From assembly GCA_031422255.1 (NCBI GenBank), contig JANOQG010000382.1, positions 1 through 39,663 of the forward strand: a stretch of 39,663 nucleotides of DNA, in the 5' to 3' direction. Positions 32,697 to 39,663 of the stretch are shown piece by piece. The notes beneath the pieces were generated by a model. The model saw only the letters and a list, made by a program, of their open reading frames with translations, made no database searches and was not told the DNA's origin. The stretch's first letter is position 1; every line of letters begins with the position of its first letter. The position numbers and the translations under genes are program-made. The DNA comes from Actinomycetes bacterium (GTDB taxonomy: Bacteria; Actinomycetota; Acidimicrobiia; Acidimicrobiales; VFJN01).

Positions 32697-35600
32697 GTGG
32701 CTGCAGACATTCCCCCCCATGACGACGCACTGCCGAGTGCCGTCGGTCCCAACGCCTGGCTCGTCGATGAGATGCACGAGCAGTATCTCAGCGATCCGGC
32801 ATCGGTGAGCGAGAGCTGGCGTGATTTCTTCGCAGACTACCGGCGCGACGCCGCACCGCAGACCGCCCCGATCGCCCCGCCCGCTCCCGTCGAGGCGCCC
32901 AGGCCTGTCGCGACGCCAGCGGTCCAGGCATCGGAAGCGACCCCGACGGCCACGGCTCCAGCCGTGGTTGCCGAGCCTGAGGGAGACGCGATCCGAGGGG
33001 CGGCTGCGCGGATCGTGCAGAACATGGAAGCCAGCCTCGGCGTGCCCACGGCCACCAGCTTCCGCAGCGTCCCAGCCAAGCTCCTCGAGGTCAACCGTCG
33101 GATCATCAATGGCTACCTCGGTCGTACCCGCGGCGGGAAGGTGTCCTTCACGCACCTGATCGGCTACGCGGTCGTGCGGGCGATCCACGACACGGCGCCG
33201 GTCATGAACGCTTCCTACATCGAAGATGCGGATGGCAAACCTCGGGTGGTCCGGCATGATCACGTGAGCCTTGGCATCGCGGTCGACATGCAGAAGTCCG
33301 ACGGCAGCCGCACGCTCCTGGTGCCCGTGGTGCGTGATGCAGATGCGCTCGACTTCCGGGGCTTCTGGGGGGCCTATGAGGAGCTGATCCACAAGGTTCG
33401 CTCGAACAAGCTCAGCCCCGATGACTTCGCGGGCATCACGGTCACGCTCACCAACCCGGGCACGATCGGCACGCAGCAGTCGGTGCCCCGCCTCATGCCT
33501 GGCCAGGGACTCATCGTGGGTGTTGGCAGCCTCGACTACCCCTCGGAGTGGAAGGCCGCCGACCCCGTCACGCTCGCCGATCTGGGCATCTCCAAGGTCA
33601 TCACGATCAGCTCCACCTACGACCACCGCATCATCCAAGGGGCAGAGTCGGGCCTGTTCCTGAAGCGGGTGGAGGAGCTGCTCCTCGGCACCGACGGCTT
33701 TTACGACGACGTGTTCAGAGCGCTGGGAGTGCCCTACGAAGCCGTGCAGTGGCGGCGCGACGTCAACCCCATCGACCGTGAGCAAGCCATGCTCGAGAAG
33801 CAGATGGCGGTGGCCAACCTCATCCGCATCCATCGCGTGCGCGGGCATCTCATCGCCGACCTCGACCCGCTCCGGTGGAAGGAGCCGGAGATGCCGGTCG
33901 AGCTTGACCCGGCCACCTACGGCCTCACGATCTGGGATCTCGACCGCGAGTTCCTCACGGGAGGACTGGCCGGCCGCGAGCGGGTCGCACTGGGCGACAT
34001 CCTCCACGTGCTGCGCGACGCCTACTGCCGCACCGTCGGCATCGAGTACATGCACATCCAGGATCCCGTCGAACAGCAGTGGATCCAGGATCAGGTCGAG
34101 GGTGTGGCCCCCGAGCTCGACCTGGACGATCAGCGGTACATCCTCGAGCGGCTCAACGCTGCCGAGGCCTTCGAGAAGTTCCTCGCCACGAAGTACGTGG
34201 GGCAGAAGCGATTCGGGCTCGAGGGGGCGGAATCCGCCATTCCCATCCTCGATGCCATCCTCGAGGCGGCCGCCGATGCGGGTCTCGTGGGTTCGGTGAT
34301 CGGCATGCCCCACCGCGGGCGTTTGAACGTGCTGACGAACATCGTTGGCAAGAGCTACGACCAGCTGTTCCGGGAGTTCGAAGGTCAGGTCGATCCCGAC
34401 TCGATGCAGGGTTCCGGTGACGTGAAGTATCACCTCGGCCAGGTGGGCAAGTTCGTCGCGCGGTCGGGGAAGGACATCACCGTGGAGCTGGCCGCCAACC
34501 CGAGTCATCTCGAGGCGGTCGATCCCGTCGTGGTGGGAATGGTTCGGGCCAAGCAGGACGCCATCAACGAACCCGAGGCCTTCTCGGTGTTGCCGATCCT
34601 CATGCATGGCGACGCCGCGTTCGCGGGCCAGGGAGTGGTGGCGGAGACGCTCAACATGAGCGACATCAAGGGCTACCGCGTCGGCGGCACGGTGCACGTG
34701 GTCGTCAACAACCAGATCGGGTTCACCACCACCCCCGAATCCGCTCGCTCCGGCTTCTACTCAACCGACGTCGCCAAGATCATCCAGGCGCCGATCTTCC
34801 ACGTCAACGGCGACGATCCCGAGGCGTGTGTGCGCGTGGCCCGCCTGGCCTTCGCCTATCGCCAGCGGTTCCGCAAGGACGCCGTCATCGACATGGTCTG
34901 CTACCGCCGTCATGGGCACAACGAGGGTGATGATCCCAGCTACACCCAGCCGATCATGTACGCCAAGATCGACGCGCGACGTTCGGTGCGAAAGCTGTTC
35001 ACAGAGTCGCTCGTGAAGCGAGGACAGCTTTCGCTGGAGGAGGCTGAGGTCGCCCTCGACGACTTCCAGAAGCGGCTGCAGTCTGCCCTCGAGCAGACTC
35101 GCCAGTCCGCCCCCACCGTCGAGGCCGTCGCGAAGCCCCCGTCTCCGCCGATCGGGGTCTTGCCTGCTCTCGCTACCGGCGTCGAGCGCGAGGTGCTGGA
35201 GCGGATCTACACCGCGCTTTCCACCTTCCCCGACGCGTTTCAGGTACACCCCAAGCTGCTCAAGCAGTTCGAAGCACGTCACGCGATGTTCAAGGAGGGT
35301 GCGGTCGACTGGGCGCTCGCCGAGGCGATGGCCTACGGCTCGCTCCTTCTCGAGGGCACCGACCTGCGCATCGCGGGCCAGGACACTCGTCGCGGCACGT
35401 TCAGCCATCGCCACGCGGTGGTGATCGACCACACCAACGGCGACGAGTTCGCACCCCTCGCGCACCTCGGGGCCGAGCAGGGCAAGTTCTGGATCTACGA
35501 CTCGCTGCTCTCCGAATACGCCGCCCTCGGCTTCGAGTACGGGTACTCGGTCGTAGCCAAGGAATCGCTCGTGATCTGGGAGGCCCAGTTCGGCGACTTC

Positions 35601-36332
35601 TGGAACGGCGCGTCCACGATCGTCGACCAGTTCCTGGTGGCAGCCGAGGACAAGTGGAACCAGACGGCTGGCCTCGTGATGTACCTACCCCATGGGTACG
35701 AAGGCCAGGGACCGGAGCACTCGTCGGCGCGGGTCGAGCGATTCCTGACGCTGTGTGCCGAGGACAACATCCAGGTGGCCAACGTCACCCAGGCCTCGCA
35801 GCTGTTCCACCTTCTGCGTCGCCAGGTCCGGCGCACGGTGCGAAAGCCACTTGTGCTGTTCACCCCGAAGTCCCTCCTCCGGGCCAAGACCATGCGTTCT
35901 CCCGTCGAGGATCTCTTCACCGGTTCGTTCCGCGAGACGCTCGACGACGCCGGGGTGGCGGATCCCGCGGCTGTACGACGCGTCGTGTTGACGGCCGGCA
36001 AGATCGGCCATGAGGCGATCGCGGCTCGTGATTCCGCCGGGGCGCCGATCGCGGTCGTGCGCGTGGAGCAGCTCTACCCGTGGCCCTACGAGCAGCTCGA
36101 CGAGATCGTGGCCCGCTACCCCGGGGCCAAGGAGATCGTCTGGCTTCAGGAGGAGGCGGAGAACATGGGCGCCTGGAACTTCGTGAAGGGGCGTCTCTAC
36201 GAGCGCTTCGACGCGAGCCACTCGATCCATCGCATCTCCCGCTACGAGTCGGGGAGTCCTGCCACCGGCTCGCACGCCGTCCACGCCCAAGAGCAAGCAC
36301 ACCTGCTCGCGCGATCTCTCGACCTCACCTAG
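32697..36332 (+). CDS. kgd: Multifunctional 2-oxoglutarate dehydrogenase/decarboxylase (E2o-E1o fusion, Kgd/OdhA)
   Basis: GPNAWLVDEM, acyltransferase YDHRIIQGAESG, KRFGLEG, HGDAAFAGQG ThDP motif, HGYEGQGPEHSS. Confidence 0.97.
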   Translation: MAADIPPHDDALPSAVGPNAWLVDEMHEQYLSDPASVSESWRDFFADYRRDAAPQTAPIAPPAPVEAPRPVATPAVQASEATPTATAPAVVAEPEGDAIRGAAARIVQNMEASLGVPTATSFRSVPAKLLEVNRRIINGYLGRTRGGKVSFTHLIGYAVVRAIHDTAPVMNASYIEDADGKPRVVRHDHVSLGIAVDMQKSDGSRTLLVPVVRDADALDFRGFWGAYEELIHKVRSNKLSPDDFAGITVTLTNPGTIGTQQSVPRLMPGQGLIVGVGSLDYPSEWKAADPVTLADLGISKVITISSTYDHRIIQGAESGLFLKRVEELLLGTDGFYDDVFRALGVPYEAVQWRRDVNPIDREQAMLEKQMAVANLIRIHRVRGHLIADLDPLRWKEPEMPVELDPATYGLTIWDLDREFLTGGLAGRERVALGDILHVLRDAYCRTVGIEYMHIQDPVEQQWIQDQVEGVAPELDLDDQRYILERLNAAEAFEKFLATKYVGQKRFGLEGAESAIPILDAILEAAADAGLVGSVIGMPHRGRLNVLTNIVGKSYDQLFREFEGQVDPDSMQGSGDVKYHLGQVGKFVARSGKDITVELAANPSHLEAVDPVVVGMVRAKQDAINEPEAFSVLPILMHGDAAFAGQGVVAETLNMSDIKGYRVGGTVHVVVNNQIGFTTTPESARSGFYSTDVAKIIQAPIFHVNGDDPEACVRVARLAFAYRQRFRKDAVIDMVCYRRHGHNEGDDPSYTQPIMYAKIDARRSVRKLFTESLVKRGQLSLEEAEVALDDFQKRLQSALEQTRQSAPTVEAVAKPPSPPIGVLPALATGVEREVLERIYTALSTFPDAFQVHPKLLKQFEARHAMFKEGAVDWALAEAMAYGSLLLEGTDLRIAGQDTRRGTFSHRHAVVIDHTNGDEFAPLAHLGAEQGKFWIYDSLLSEYAALGFEYGYSVVAKESLVIWEAQFGDFWNGASTIVDQFLVAAEDKWNQTAGLVMYLPHGYEGQGPEHSSARVERFLTLCAEDNIQVANVTQASQLFHLLRRQVRRTVRKPLVLFTPKSLLRAKTMRSPVEDLFTGSFRETLDDAGVADPAAVRRVVLTAGKIGHEAIAARDSAGAPIAVVRVEQLYPWPYEQLDEIVARYPGAKEIVWLQEEAENMGAWNFVKGRLYERFDASHSIHRISRYESGSPATGSHAVHAQEQAHLLARSLDLT

Positions 36333-36348
36333 CGGCCCGGACGCACGC

Positions 36349-36984
36349 TCACCCCAACGGGAATCCGACGACCTGCTCCAGCTCGCGAAGGGCGGCGGCG
36401 GGGTCCACGACCTTGATCGTCGTCATGCCCATCGCAGCGGCCGGCTTGAGGTTGACTCCCAGGTCATCGAGGAACACCGCCTCGGCGGGTGCAACGCCGC
36501 ACTGCTCGCAGGCCAGCTCATAGAACCGCGGGTCGGGCTTGCGCACGCCCACCTTGCTCGACTCGATGACGTGGTGGAACAGCCCGAGCACGTCGGCGCG
36601 TCCTGCATCCACGGTCTCGGACGGGAGGTCGCCGAATCCCACCCAGTTGTTGGTGAGGCAGGCAGTGACCAAGTTGGCCCGGCACCGGCGAACGGCCTCG
36701 ACCATCGTCGGACGGATCTCGCCCGCGAGCAGCGGCATGACCTCACGCGCCACCACCTGCTGCCCCGCAGCGCGACACTCAGCCTCGAACAGGTCACAGA
36801 ACTCGGGGAAGGGCACCTCGCTCCGCTCGAAGCGCGCCCAGGCGTTGACGTCCGGGTTGGTGGAGTTCACGGTTCGGATGAAGTCGATCGGCAGCCCGTG
36901 CGCGGATTCGTATCCGTTGAAGGCCTCGAACGGACTCGAGAGCACGACGCCGCCGAAGTCGAAGAAGGCCGCTCGGATGGTCAC
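36349..36984 (-). CDS. HAD family phosphatase (epoxide-hydrolase N-terminal-like)
   Basis: FFDFGGV, LTNNW, GVRKPDPRFY, FLDDLGVNL; GTG overlaps the upstream TGA (GTGA). Confidence 0.92.
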   Translation of the reverse strand: MTIRAAFFDFGGVVLSSPFEAFNGYESAHGLPIDFIRTVNSTNPDVNAWARFERSEVPFPEFCDLFEAECRAAGQQVVAREVMPLLAGEIRPTMVEAVRRCRANLVTACLTNNWVGFGDLPSETVDAGRADVLGLFHHVIESSKVGVRKPDPRFYELACEQCGVAPAEAVFLDDLGVNLKPAAAMGMTTIKVVDPAAALRELEQVVGFPLG

Positions 36985-38303
36985 GTCAGCAAGTCTGTGG
37001 CGAGGGCTTCCCACATCGACGTGCTGAGTTGCAGCGACTCGACATCGATCCGTTCATCGTCGCCGTGGAACATGGCGCCGTAGTCCTCGAAGGACAGGTG
37101 CTCAGAGAACAAGCCGAACCCGTACGAGGTCGTACCGAGGCGCCGGAAGAAGCGCGCGTCTGTCGCGCCAACTGTCATGAACGGGACGATCTTCGAACCC
37201 GCGTAGAAGTCCTGTGTGACGCGGCCCAGCGCATCCCACAATGGCGTGTCGATCGGAGAAGCCGTTGACGGGTCATCGGCGGATGCGAGGAGCTCGACCT
37301 TCGGAGCAAGGTCGCCCAGCGCTTCGTCGAGCATCGCTCGCACCTCGGTTTCGCCCTGACCGGGAAGCGTGCGGATGTCGAGTTGCAGGTCGACGCGGTC
37401 GGGGATGACGTTGATCTTCGTGCCACCGTGCGCGATGGTCGGAGCGAAGGTCGTGTGAGTGCATGCGTGGAACTGACGCCCCATGCCGACGGGTAGCTGG
37501 TCGCACGCGTCCATGAAGTCGGCGGGATTGAGCAACGGGCCGACGATCTCCTCTGGGTAGTCCATCCCCTCGAGGAACTGTCGCCAGATGCCGTGGATCT
37601 CGGTGCGAGGCTGGTACTCCGCGATCCTCTGCACGACGGCGGCGGCCGTCACGAGAGCGTTGTCCGTCTTGTAGGGCTGCGATCCGTGGCCTGGCGTTCC
37701 CATCACCCGCAATGTCACCCAGAAGCTGCCCTTCTCGCCCACGATCACGGGCAGCTTCAGGCCGGTGGGGCTGGGGATCGGGATGCCTCCCGACTCGGTG
37801 ATCACGTAGTCGGCCCGGATTGCGTCGGGCTCGTGATCGACGAGGTGCTGGGCTCCGAGGGAGCCAAGGGCCTCCTCATCGGCAACCGCGAGGTAGATGA
37901 GGGTGCCCTTGGGCCGAAAGGCACCGCGGGCGAGGTGCTTCACCGCTACTGCCATCGACGCGGTGAGGTTGAGCATGTCGACGGCGCCGCGACCCCACAC
38001 CTCGCCGTCGATGAGCTCCCCGCCAAAGGGGTCATGGCGCCAACCGTCAGGGTTCACGGGAACGACGTCCGTGTGCCCCATGAGCAGAAGCGTGGGTGCG
38101 TCCGGGTCGGTTCCCTCGATGCGACCGACAAGGCTCGTGCGACCGGGAGCGGGTTCATAGCGCTCGAGGTCGACGCCCGATCCTTCGAGGTAGGTCTCGA
38201 GAAGATCGGCACTCCGCACTTCGTGTCCCGACGTCGCGGTGCCGTCGTTCACGCACTCGTTTCGGATGAGTTGTTGCAGCAGATCGGTGACCTCGTCGCT
38301 CAT
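36981..38303 (-). CDS. M20/M25/M40 family metallopeptidase
   Basis: GHTDVVP, GRGAVDM, ADEE, GHGS, GATDAR, HGDDE. Confidence 0.94.
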   Translation of the reverse strand: MSDEVTDLLQQLIRNECVNDGTATSGHEVRSADLLETYLEGSGVDLERYEPAPGRTSLVGRIEGTDPDAPTLLLMGHTDVVPVNPDGWRHDPFGGELIDGEVWGRGAVDMLNLTASMAVAVKHLARGAFRPKGTLIYLAVADEEALGSLGAQHLVDHEPDAIRADYVITESGGIPIPSPTGLKLPVIVGEKGSFWVTLRVMGTPGHGSQPYKTDNALVTAAAVVQRIAEYQPRTEIHGIWRQFLEGMDYPEEIVGPLLNPADFMDACDQLPVGMGRQFHACTHTTFAPTIAHGGTKINVIPDRVDLQLDIRTLPGQGETEVRAMLDEALGDLAPKVELLASADDPSTASPIDTPLWDALGRVTQDFYAGSKIVPFMTVGATDARFFRRLGTTSYGFGLFSEHLSFEDYGAMFHGDDERIDVESLQLSTSMWEALATDLLT

Positions 38304-38426
38304 CGTTGGGACACTAACGGCGAGTGCGGGAAGTCATGTCGGCGACGACGAAGCTGGTGTTCGTGCGCAACTTTTCTCGCACCATCCTCCCGCGCGCGCA
38401 AAACGGATGCTTGACTTGCAAACCGG

Positions 38427-39663
38427 ATGGCTGTCAAGCACGTCGTGGTCGACGGATCCAACCTCGCAACAGAGGGACGCACCTTGCCGAGCTTGCAACA
38501 GCTCGACGAGGCAGTGCGCTCGTTCGTCGACGAATTCGGGCCGGTACAAGTCACCGTCGTGGTCGATGCGAGCTTCCCAAATCGCATCGATGCATCGGAG
38601 CGCGCCGCGTTCGAGGATGGCATCAGCGCGGGCGAGATGATCTCCCCACCCGCCGGAGTCATTGGTCGGGGTGACGCATTCCTTCTGCAGATCGCCGATC
38701 GGGCCGATGCAGTCGTGCTGTCCAACGACTCCTTCCAAGAGTTCCATGGCCAGTACGCGTGGCTGTTCGATCAGGGCCGCCTAGTCGGCGGCAAGCCCGT
38801 ACCCCACGTGGGTTGGGTGTTCATGGACCGTTCGCCGGTCCGGGGCCCGCTCAGCCGTCGATCCGTGAGTGATGCGAAGAAGGCCGCGGCGAAGAAGACT
38901 CCCGCGAAGGCCACCTCGGCGAAGGCCTCGACTGCCAAGTCCTCGCCAGGCAAACAAGCGGCAGCGGTGGCCTCGTCGACCAAAGCGCCCACCGGCCGTA
39001 CACCCAAGCGTGGCGCCAACGATGCAGCCCGCCGCGCCGCCGGTTCCAAAGGCGCTGCGGTGCTCGCGGCGTCGACAGGTGGCCGTACGCGTCAACGGCG
39101 CAGCGGGAGCGGTTCCGGCGGCGGAGTGGAGCCGTACAACGATGCGCTCCCGTTCATCGAGTTCGTCGGCGCACATCCCGTCGGCTCTGTCGTCTCCGGC
39201 GAGGTCGAACGATTCGCATCGCACGGCGCCTATGTCATGGCTGACGGGGCGCGGTGCTACTTGCCGCTCGCCCACTTGGCCGACCCGCCCCCTCGGAGCG
39301 CCCGCGAGGCGCTCAGCATGGGTCGGCCCTATGAGTTCGTGGTCCATGCGTTCGACACCCCGCGCCGCGGTGTCGACCTGACCATGCCTGGTGTCGTGGT
39401 TGTTTCGGCGGGACGTCCCGCCGCGGTGACCTCGGCTGGCGATCCCGTACACCAAACGAACAAGGAGGCACGGGTGGCACCTGCAAAGAAGGCAGCCAAG
39501 AAGGCAGTGAAGCGGAAGGCTCCGGCGAAGAAGAAGGCCGTAGCTCGCAAGGCTCCGGCCAAGCGGAAGGCTCCGGCGAAGAAGAAGGCCGTAGCTCGCA
39601 AGGCTCCGGCCAAGAAGAAGGCTGTAGCCAAGAAGAAGGCTCCGGCGAAGAAGAAGGCCGTAG
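38427..39663 (+). CDS. NYN/PIN (Zc3h12a/Regnase-like) ribonuclease + S1-like domain + histone H1-like Lys/Ala tail; truncated by the window edge
   Basis: Manual translation, open to the end: HVVVDGSNL, VVVDAS, GRGDAFLLQIA, VLSNDSFQEF; VGSVVSGEVERFASHGAYV...YLPLAHL; then (KAPAKKKAVA)n. Confidence 0.88.
   Translation, partial: MAVKHVVVDGSNLATEGRTLPSLQQLDEAVRSFVDEFGPVQVTVVVDASFPNRIDASERAAFEDGISAGEMISPPAGVIGRGDAFLLQIADRADAVVLSNDSFQEFHGQYAWLFDQGRLVGGKPVPHVGWVFMDRSPVRGPLSRRSVSDAKKAAAKKTPAKATSAKASTAKSSPGKQAAAVASSTKAPTGRTPKRGANDAARRAAGSKGAAVLAASTGGRTRQRRSGSGSGGGVEPYNDALPFIEFVGAHPVGSVVSGEVERFASHGAYVMADGARCYLPLAHLADPPPRSAREALSMGRPYEFVVHAFDTPRRGVDLTMPGVVVVSAGRPAAVTSAGDPVHQTNKEARVAPAKKAAKKAVKRKAPAKKKAVARKAPAKRKAPAKKKAVARKAPAKKKAVAKKKAPAKKKAV
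39406..39423. promoter_or_regulatory. Perfect 18-bp palindrome CGGCGGGACGTCCCGCCG inside the NYN-S1 gene
   Basis: Perfect dyad in the linker, about 50 nt upstream of the internal GTG; function unknown. Confidence 0.4.
39462..39476 (+). promoter_or_regulatory. Internal in-frame ribosome binding site AAGGAGG-N5-GTG
   Basis: Perfect Shine-Dalgarno preceded by A/C-rich ACACCAAACGAAC; GTG 39474 is codon 350 of the long ORF, at the start of the AKK tail. Confidence 0.65.
39510..39663 (+). repeat. Coding tandem repeat: two identical 51-bp units plus shorter variants (KRKAPAKKKAVARKAPA)
   Basis: 39510-39560 is identical to 39561-39611, followed by degenerate units to the edge. Confidence 0.9.

Follow-up and report, generated by a model that had tools for sequence, protein, structure and literature searches.

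What kind of protein is encoded by the reading frame that runs off the end of contig JANOQG010000382.1, from a genome of the order Acidimicrobiales (GenBank assembly GCA_031422255.1), and what might it do in the cell? The window analyzed here (39,663 nucleotides) is this entire contig (G000:C382), one of 446 in an assembly that is 94.5% complete. An earlier note on this DNA had described a frame open from ATG 38427 to the window edge, encoding a Regnase-like NYN ribonuclease domain followed by a Lys/Ala/Ser-rich linker, an S1-like segment, and a histone H1-like tail of AKK repeats. The frame was found as described: a single forward-strand frame (38427-39663) of 412 codons, free of stops through the final base, with ATG 38427 as the earliest start codon downstream of the preceding in-frame stop; the linker, S1 segment, and tail were all in place (Table 1). 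We propose, with moderate confidence based on sequence comparisons and structural models, that the product (referred to as the NYN-S1 protein) is an endoribonuclease that depends on divalent metal ions and serves a housekeeping function in the processing or turnover of RNA.

Since the window is a whole contig, it is the end of the contig, rather than the choice of window, that truncates the gene. When the contig was extended, as the earlier note had advised, the missing part was recovered at the end of another contig of the same assembly (C356, minus strand): the last 16 codons (PAKKKKAVARKATKKR) and then the stop, with the gene for exodeoxyribonuclease III (xth) ~100 bases beyond. This C-terminus matched in style that of the closest full-length relatives (P0002 ends ...KKKAVARKATKRR). 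The presence of the C-terminus, stop, and xth on C356 indicated that the assembly broke within the AKK tandem repeat; a contig from a public sequencing run that contains the window sequence passes from window position 39605 directly into the C356 sequence. The gene is intact in the organism, and close relatives are 436-460 residues long. It is also real, with similarity far beyond chance: the closest relatives matched at E-values of 1e-214 to 1e-116, and full-length relatives shared the start Met (M-x-V-x-H-V-V-V-D-G-S-N) in 14 of the 15 rows of a shallow alignment (A1).

The N-terminal domain matched the RNase_Zc3h12a profile (PF11977) over residues 4-109 with 30 bits, above the Pfam cut-off of 23 (32 bits in a six-frame search), and the same family was present in all 104 family representatives scanned with Pfam (the first 104 of 149). 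Using an alignment of 150 rows (A2; 149 cluster representatives and the window copy, with NYN-domain identity of 61-80%), AlphaFold2 modeled the domain with a mean predicted local distance difference test score (pLDDT) of 93.8 and a predicted template modeling (TM) score of 0.88, whereas the NYN part reached a pLDDT of only 30-57 with the 15-row alignment A1. The PIN fold expected in the earlier note was thus obtained, and a Foldseek search of PDB with the NYN model gave 31 matches at E <= 1e-3, headed by ZC3H12B, Regnase-1/MCPIP1, ZC3H12C, and KHNYN (E of 2.8e-7 to 1e-5, TM ~0.67, best probability of 1.00) and then PRORP1/2. A second structural comparison gave a Z-score of 13.8 for MCPIP1, with a root-mean-square deviation (rmsd) of 2.6 Å over 128 residues (2-136 of the model on 134-281 of the chain), and 13.4 for KHNYN; scores were 12.9-13.8 in the MCPIP1/ZC3H12B/C/KHNYN group and 12.2-12.5 for PRORP1/2, below which they fell to 8.6 (ExoIX), 7.5 (Rae1), and ~7 (FEN, T5 exonuclease, and T4 RNase H). 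The best structural matches were RNA endonucleases throughout.

The four motifs pointed out in the earlier note (VDGSN, VVD, GDAFLL, and SNDSF) were all present, and in the alignment to KHNYN/ZC3H12A, VVVDGSNLA corresponded to IVIDGSNVA, GRGDAFLL to YDDRFMV, and LSNDSFQEF to VSNDQFRDL. Invariant residues in the 150 rows included D9, G10, S11, N12, G82, D83, S99, N100, D101, S102, and E105. Among them, D9, N12, D83, D101, and E105 lie, by this alignment, at known metal-site positions and form the putative catalytic set; the metal-site residues of Regnase-1 are D141, N144, D225, D226, D244, and D248. The comparison with the DGSN...D...SND signature of Regnase stood in part: the motifs align, but the invariant G82 replaces the first Asp of the Regnase/KHNYN DD pair, E105 replaces the last Asp, and no CCCH zinc finger was found (residues 148-236 contained no Cys/His cluster, and no Pfam zinc-finger family matched in the protein). 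The absence of the CCCH finger places the NYN-S1 protein outside the Zc3h12/Regnase subfamily, and the lack of PPR (pentatricopeptide) repeats and of a zinc-binding domain (PF16953; no Pfam match at E <= 1) sets it apart from PRORP. Its putative active-site set is compatible with PF11977 membership; 0-5 active-site residues are given for RNase_Zc3h12a in the accessible part of Matelska 2017.

The Gly in place of a canonical metal-site Asp could also mean that the protein is a non-catalytic pseudo-nuclease acting as an RNA chaperone or nucleoid-associated protein, a notion that fits a protein dominated by binding modules (the S1 domain and basic tails) and a genome that contains a clearly degenerate NYN paralogue. 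We regard this as very unlikely, since five polar or acidic positions invariant over 150 sequences at 61-80% NYN identity are as expected of an active enzyme, and the paralogue provides a contrast in having lost N12, D83, and the SND motif.

Residues 250-319 matched the S1 family (PF00575) with 26.6 bits against a cut-off of 22, so that both profile searches suggested in the earlier note were positive, and the family profile matched ribosomal protein bS1 at an E-value of 4.2e-24. The domain was predicted as a barrel, the OB fold that had been anticipated, with a pLDDT of ~90 even from the shallow alignment (strands 255-264, 267-272, 275-280, 301-310, and 315-319), and its model was superposed on the C-terminal S1 domain of Mycobacterium tuberculosis RpsA (4nni_A) with an rmsd of 1.1 Å over 79 columns. 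Among the Foldseek matches listed (E <= 1e-3), 39 were to S1 domains of RNA-binding proteins, including, besides RpsA, those of bS1, eIF2-alpha, PNPase, RNase R, Tex, and GSP13. Pfam detected S1 at E <= 0.001 in just 54 of the 104 representatives, pointing to a divergent domain and to fragments among the rows. The S1 core motif H-G was present in 113 of the 124 alignment rows of at least 330 residues, indicating that the combination of NYN and S1 is the rule in this clade.

The linker between the two domains was variable in length and sequence among relatives. The tail was predicted to be disordered and is basic, while the folded NYN and S1 domains are acidic, and its DNA contains a tandem repeat at 39510-39640 (period of 51 bases, 2.6 copies, 92% matches). 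A post-S1 segment of 35-456 residues with 19-46% Lys and Arg was found in 25 of 27 loci; in the remaining two (L031 and L035), the frame stops right after S1, possibly through frameshifts. The term "histone H1-like" applied to the Lys/Ala composition of the tail only: HC2 (PF07382) scored 14.4 bits against a cut-off of 40 and the NCBIfam profile NF038053 17.2 against 80, both below cut-off, and the likeness is one of composition and not of homology (HC2 matched in 23 of the 104 representatives). The other parallel drawn in the earlier note, with the PAKK-type tails of actinobacterial nucleic-acid-binding proteins, was confirmed within this genome, in which topoisomerase I (TopA) also carries an AKKAPAKK-type tail (G000:C244, L003:1480-2976, minus strand; Topoisom_bac and Toprim_C_rpt). 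The same type of tail was seen on a phasin-like protein of 150 residues (G000:C430, L002:1193-1642, plus strand; Phasin 27.4 bits against a cut-off of 28.8, HC2 33 bits). Lysine-repeat tails are a general appendage of nucleic-acid-associated proteins in this genome. According to the accessible parts of the respective reports, the tails of actinobacterial Ku and TopA modulate DNA binding (PMC3553676, PMC5714199), and the histone-like MDP1, which has a tail of this kind, condenses RNA (PMC13639343).

What we infer for the NYN-S1 protein is RNase activity, a single-stranded RNA substrate, and a role for the tail. The NYN domain would cut RNA at an acidic site composed of D9, N12, D83, D101, and E105, with the probable assistance of D47. 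NYN active sites possess little intrinsic specificity, and here the S1 OB fold would capture single-stranded RNA; the Lys/Arg-rich disordered linker and tail would raise the general affinity for polyanions, and may position the enzyme on the nucleoid, ribosomes, or RNA-rich condensates. We favor an endoribonuclease because the nearest fold class, by a wide margin, is that of RNA endonucleases, because the active-site positions are invariant in a clade diverging to ~60% identity in the NYN domain, because the attached module is a classic binder of single-stranded RNA (as in bS1, RNase E, PNPase, and RNase R), and because characterized NYN relatives gain their specificity from accessory RNA-binding domains. 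The last point is made for PRORP and ZC3H12A in the accessible part of Matelska 2017.

A more specialized enzyme could be built from the same modules, namely, a dedicated stable-RNA or ribosome-associated nuclease (for rRNA/tRNA maturation or ribosome quality control) that docks via the S1 domain and a ribosomal-protein-like basic tail. The S1 domain is nearest to those of bS1, PRORP (the second-best structural class, Z of 12.2-12.5) processes tRNA, weaker PIN-like matches include 90S pre-ribosomal nucleases and Rae1 (Z of 6-7.5), and Anantharaman and Aravind, as cited in the accessible part of Matelska 2017, tied bacterial NYN domains to tRNA/rRNA processing via gene neighborhoods. However, no rRNA, tRNA, or ribosomal-protein gene adjoined the gene in the 37 loci examined, RNase P RNA was present in the genome (198 bits), and the same data fit general mRNA decay equally. 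We therefore consider a dedicated stable-RNA role to be rather unlikely.

Among known systems, Regnase-1/MCPIP1 (ZC3H12A), ZC3H12B/C, KHNYN, and N4BP1 from eukaryotes belong to the same Pfam family as the NYN-S1 protein. The fold (Z of 12.9-13.8 and rmsd of 2.5-2.9 Å over 127-132 of 150 residues, with an identity of only 22-25%), the DGSN, D, and SNDxxx(D/E) motifs, and the design of a low-specificity nuclease with an RNA-binding module are shared, in spite of the Gly and Glu substitutions described above. On the other hand, the NYN-S1 protein is bacterial and contains an S1 domain and lysine-rich segments instead of a CCCH finger, KH domain, or ubiquitin-binding region. To our knowledge, the NYN nucleases of the Regnase/KHNYN/N4BP1 type that have been studied experimentally are all eukaryotic regulators of mRNA and viral RNA. 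PRORP falls in the same structural group, and RNase_Zc3h12a is placed in the PRORP group in the accessible part of Matelska 2017; the host genome, however, encodes a normal RNase P RNA. Of the NYN nucleases matched in structure, only Rae1/YacP from Bacillus subtilis (NYN_YacP; Z of 7.5) is bacterial; it belongs to another Pfam family, is much less similar in structure, and has neither an S1 domain nor a basic tail. The layout is analogous to that of RNase E/G, which also combines an endonuclease, S1, and long disordered basic regions on an unrelated catalytic fold. The disordered regions of RNase E organize degradosomes and BR-body condensates. Since RNase E/G is present in this genome, the NYN-S1 protein is an addition to this enzyme and not a substitute for it. 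The PAKKA/AKKA tails of actinobacterial TopA, Ku, and HupB/MDP1 are of the same composition and repeat style; here, such a tail is found on an RNase-type enzyme.

Table 1. Features of the NYN-S1 gene and its upstream region (positions in the window; residues of the predicted protein)
Feature	Position	Strand	Description
NYN-S1 protein, coding sequence	38427..39663	+	412 codons, 3'-truncated at the contig end; remainder at the end of G000:C356
NYN/PIN-like nuclease domain, Zc3h12a type	38427..38867	+	Residues 1-147; C-terminal beta-hairpin 119-134, helix 141-149
VVVDGSN motif	38442..38462	+	Residues 6-12; D9 and N12 putative metal-site residues; invariant in 150/150 rows
VVVDAS motif	38556..38573	+	Residues 44-49; D47 an extra acidic residue, kept in at least 90% of rows
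GRGDAFLL motif	38664..38687	+	Residues 80-87 (GDAFLL 82-87); D83 equivalent to the second Asp of the KHNYN/ZC3H12A DD pair
LSNDSFQEF motif	38718..38744	+	Residues 98-106 (SNDSF 99-103); D101 and E105 align to both Asp of SNDxxRD (KHNYN/ZC3H12A)
Basic low-complexity linker	38868..39134	+	Residues 148-236; A 26, S 13, G 13, K 12, R 9%; net charge +16; predicted disordered
S1 OB-fold domain	39135..39401	+	Residues 237-325; Pfam match 250-319
Lys/Ala/Pro repeat tail	39465..39663	+	Residues 347-412 onward; K 38, A 35, P 9%; net charge +29; tandem DNA repeat
Intergenic region	38304..38426	.	123 bases, between the NYN-S1 gene and the divergent M20 peptidase gene (36981-38303, -)

Of 26 loci from the order, 20 had the gene for exodeoxyribonuclease III (TIGR00633, 277 bits) immediately downstream of the NYN-S1 gene and in the same orientation, as did 2 of 2 further loci and the window genome; these loci are kin and not independent observations. 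Eight loci from other genera showed a gap of -4 to 21 bases, compared with 111-128 bases in 6 of the 9 loci from the window genus, and a 4HBT thioesterase gene usually follows xth. The two genes likely form an operon, in which the short gaps suggest translational coupling. The upstream side of the window holds the divergent M20 peptidase gene, then genes for a HAD hydrolase and a fused E1/E2 2-oxoglutarate dehydrogenase. In many genera of the order, this block (32697-38303; the kgd-type E1/E2 protein has 1211 residues) has remained adjacent to the NYN-S1 gene.

This arrangement could be taken to mean that the protein acts on DNA, as a repair-coupled nuclease working with exonuclease III in the processing of flaps, R-loops, or ribonucleotides, with its tail on the nucleoid and its S1 domain on single-stranded DNA. 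The close and frequent linkage to xth is in keeping with such a role, as are the FEN and 5' nucleases among PIN-like folds and the tail of the same type on TopA of this genome, such tails modulating DNA binding in Ku and TopA (PMC3553676, PMC5714199; accessible parts). However, none of the 9 loci in other orders of the class had xth as a neighbor, and kgd and the HAD hydrolase, M20 peptidase, and thioesterase genes, with no nucleic-acid function, are conserved equally, as expected of a region that is merely syntenic. The NYN model also scored lower against DNA nucleases (Z of 7-8.6) than against RNases (12-14); the range for FEN and 5' nucleases (ExoIX, the 5' nuclease of Taq/Pol I, T5, and FEN1) was 6-8.6, and the Pfam scan of the NYN-S1 protein gave no FEN-family match and no H3TH or other DNA-binding module. 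Because the unrelated metabolic neighbors are equally conserved, we read the link to xth as a feature of operon layout in this one order that carries weak functional information, and a DNA-directed function appears improbable. The prediction of a complex between residues 1-325 and Xth returned a score of 0.00, which is no answer and speaks neither for nor against binding.

Outside the order, the neighbors were an AMP-binding enzyme upstream and a rhodanese and a CoA-transferase downstream, or, in other loci, a methyltransferase and YjbR. In one locus from another order (L015:4026-5920, G116), two WYL/WCX genes, which we take to resemble PafB/PafC, lay directly upstream on the same strand, a pairing that was absent in the other 8 out-of-order loci.

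Two of 31 relatives of 722-2060 residues (P0403 and P0411) contained the Xth domain (PF03372), the other 29 having longer low-complexity tails. True NYN-S1-Xth fusions were considered and rejected: the post-S1 stretch of P0403 and P0411 is rich in Gly, Glu, and Arg and not in Ala, Lys, and Pro, and since the +2 frame of the AKK repeat is likewise G/E/R-rich and stays open (the +1 frame is Arg-rich and contains stops), we read these proteins as a frameshifted read-through of adjacent genes. In locus L036 (G022), the frame continues across xth, and in G017:C4:1243576-1244026, the N-domain is split over two frames. Frameshifts or assembly errors within the repeat probably account for the apparent fusions and over-long frames.

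The NYN-S1 protein has a single orthologue in the window genome, and its distribution is sharply bounded, with all counts drawn from samples of kin genomes. Among relatives sampled around the window genome, 22 of 24 from its genus and 12 of 16 others from the order had a match at orthologue level (E < 1e-20); the raw tally of 36/41 includes G000 and one weak paralogue-level match and counts the unpublished G003. In an evenly spread sample of 301 genomes from the phylum (Actinomycetota), the N-domain query (E <= 1e-10) and PF11977 matched the identical 13 genomes, all of which belong to the class of the window genome, and neither matched any of the 279 phylum genomes outside this class. The survey of the class proposed in the earlier note found the protein in 69 of 201 genomes of at least 90% completeness (including the unpublished G485): 55 of 62 in the order of the window genome and 14 of 139 elsewhere in the class, the latter concentrated in a few families.

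The single copy, occurrence in 55 of 62 genomes of the order, stable chromosomal context, and lack of PADLOC or PHROGs matches argue for a housekeeping character. NYN and PIN domains also occur in toxin-antitoxin and defense systems, and the protein might accordingly be a toxin or an anti-phage nuclease. We find this extremely improbable for a single-copy gene that is near-universal in the order with a synteny stable across genera; PADLOC-DB gave 0 families (P0001 and P0002, E <= 0.01), there was no PHROGs match, and no small partner gene is present, the upstream gene being the divergent M20 peptidase.

Several results weigh against the proposal of a housekeeping endoribonuclease. The invariant G82 in place of Asp makes the metal site unlike that of characterized Regnase/KHNYN enzymes, and the sequence similarity to solved NYN nucleases is weak (for KHNYN, an E-value of 0.0048 by phmmer and 0.36-0.57 with the family profile). 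The apparent xth operon usual in the order and the tail shared with TopA point to DNA and not RNA. Seven genomes of the order with at least 98% completeness had no match to this query, suggesting that the gene is dispensable there. RNase E/G (345 bits) and RNase P RNA were both found in the genome, leaving no obvious missing RNase to replace, and the replacement of one was rejected on these grounds.

A bolder extension of the endoribonuclease proposal is that the protein serves as a second major RNA-decay hub of the order: a Regnase-type endonuclease held on the nucleoid or condensates by its basic regions, which would cut nascent or R-loop RNA co-transcriptionally together with exonuclease III, presumably made from the same transcript and in places translationally coupled. 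We consider this quite improbable; if true, the Regnase/KHNYN surveillance of eukaryotes would have a counterpart in bacteria, assembled from bacterial parts.

The earlier note knew of no characterized bacterial protein with this architecture, and none was encountered here: no paper found in the literature searches mentions the combination of NYN, S1, and lysine-repeat disordered segments. The accessible part of Matelska 2017, a survey of the PIN superfamily, agrees, its table giving "Unknown function in bacteria" for RNase_Zc3h12a, and the accessible part of its supplementary table contains no PF00575 match and no relevant entry from Acidimicrobiia. The architecture is not rare, being widespread and already annotated automatically by databases; the novelty lies in delimiting a conserved clade within one order and class, in the modified catalytic motif of this clade, and in its genomic context. 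This defines a large and well conserved bacterial clade in which the catalytic motifs are intact, though modified, and are joined to RNase E-like accessory modules. If active, the NYN-S1 protein would represent a new class of endoribonuclease in bacterial RNA metabolism, a tractable model for how NYN nucleases acquire specificity, and a test case for lysine-repeat tails on an RNA enzyme. The host organisms abound in soil, water, and activated sludge and have received little attention from molecular biologists.

The NYN paralogue (153 residues; G000:C298:3149-3607, minus strand, identical to L051:1498-1956, minus strand) showed 38-39% identity over ~85 residues. Its active site is degenerate: the first Asp is kept (LVDAG), in addition to the losses noted above, and it may be a pseudo-nuclease. 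It adjoins a gene for a metallo-beta-lactamase-fold protein, and the two orthologues tested matched no Pfam family. The paralogue accounted for weak matches in 18 of the 41 relatives. At E <= 1e-10, 4 of the 201 class genomes contained it, far fewer than the 69 that have the NYN-S1 protein, and it was rejected as an obligate partner on this basis.

In a protein library clustered at 50% identity, 802 clusters matched at E <= 1e-3 and 301 at E <= 1e-30, with details available for the best 150 of the 802. Among the 120 closest relatives listed, 117 carried PF11977. Their database names were "NYN domain-containing protein" or "S1 RNA-binding domain-containing protein", from metagenome-assembled genomes of Acidimicrobiales, Acidimicrobiia, and Microthrixaceae, and the name given to members in JGI was "Zc3h12a-like Ribonuclease NYN domain/S1 RNA binding domain". 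The nearest clusters in ESM Atlas included one of 164 residues with PF11977, mostly from Pseudomonadota, indicating that more distant stand-alone bacterial homologues exist. A control search with PF11977 matched Methanocaldococcus jannaschii once, and did not do so in another search. Database relatives of 82-263 residues were also numerous (1185 matches), many of them labeled "partial", suggesting that the tails of this family routinely break short-read assemblies. A stand-alone short form within the clade was rejected because, among the matches listed, these relatives were "partial" where named by the source, and many others were on short contigs.

No Rfam family was detected at the gathering score anywhere in the window, and a simple scan of 38100-38600 gave no sigma-70-like promoter and no terminator; the intergenic region presumably holds the promoters of both divergent genes. 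Read depth across the tail was repeat noise. RNA libraries among the public sequencing runs contained the window sequence at small shares only. In a soil metatranscriptome (X2), one contig of 345 bases covered 38433-38753 with 44 differences and one piece of 101 bases matched with 4 differences; these derive from relatives, possibly through DNA carry-over, and are at most a hint of expression.

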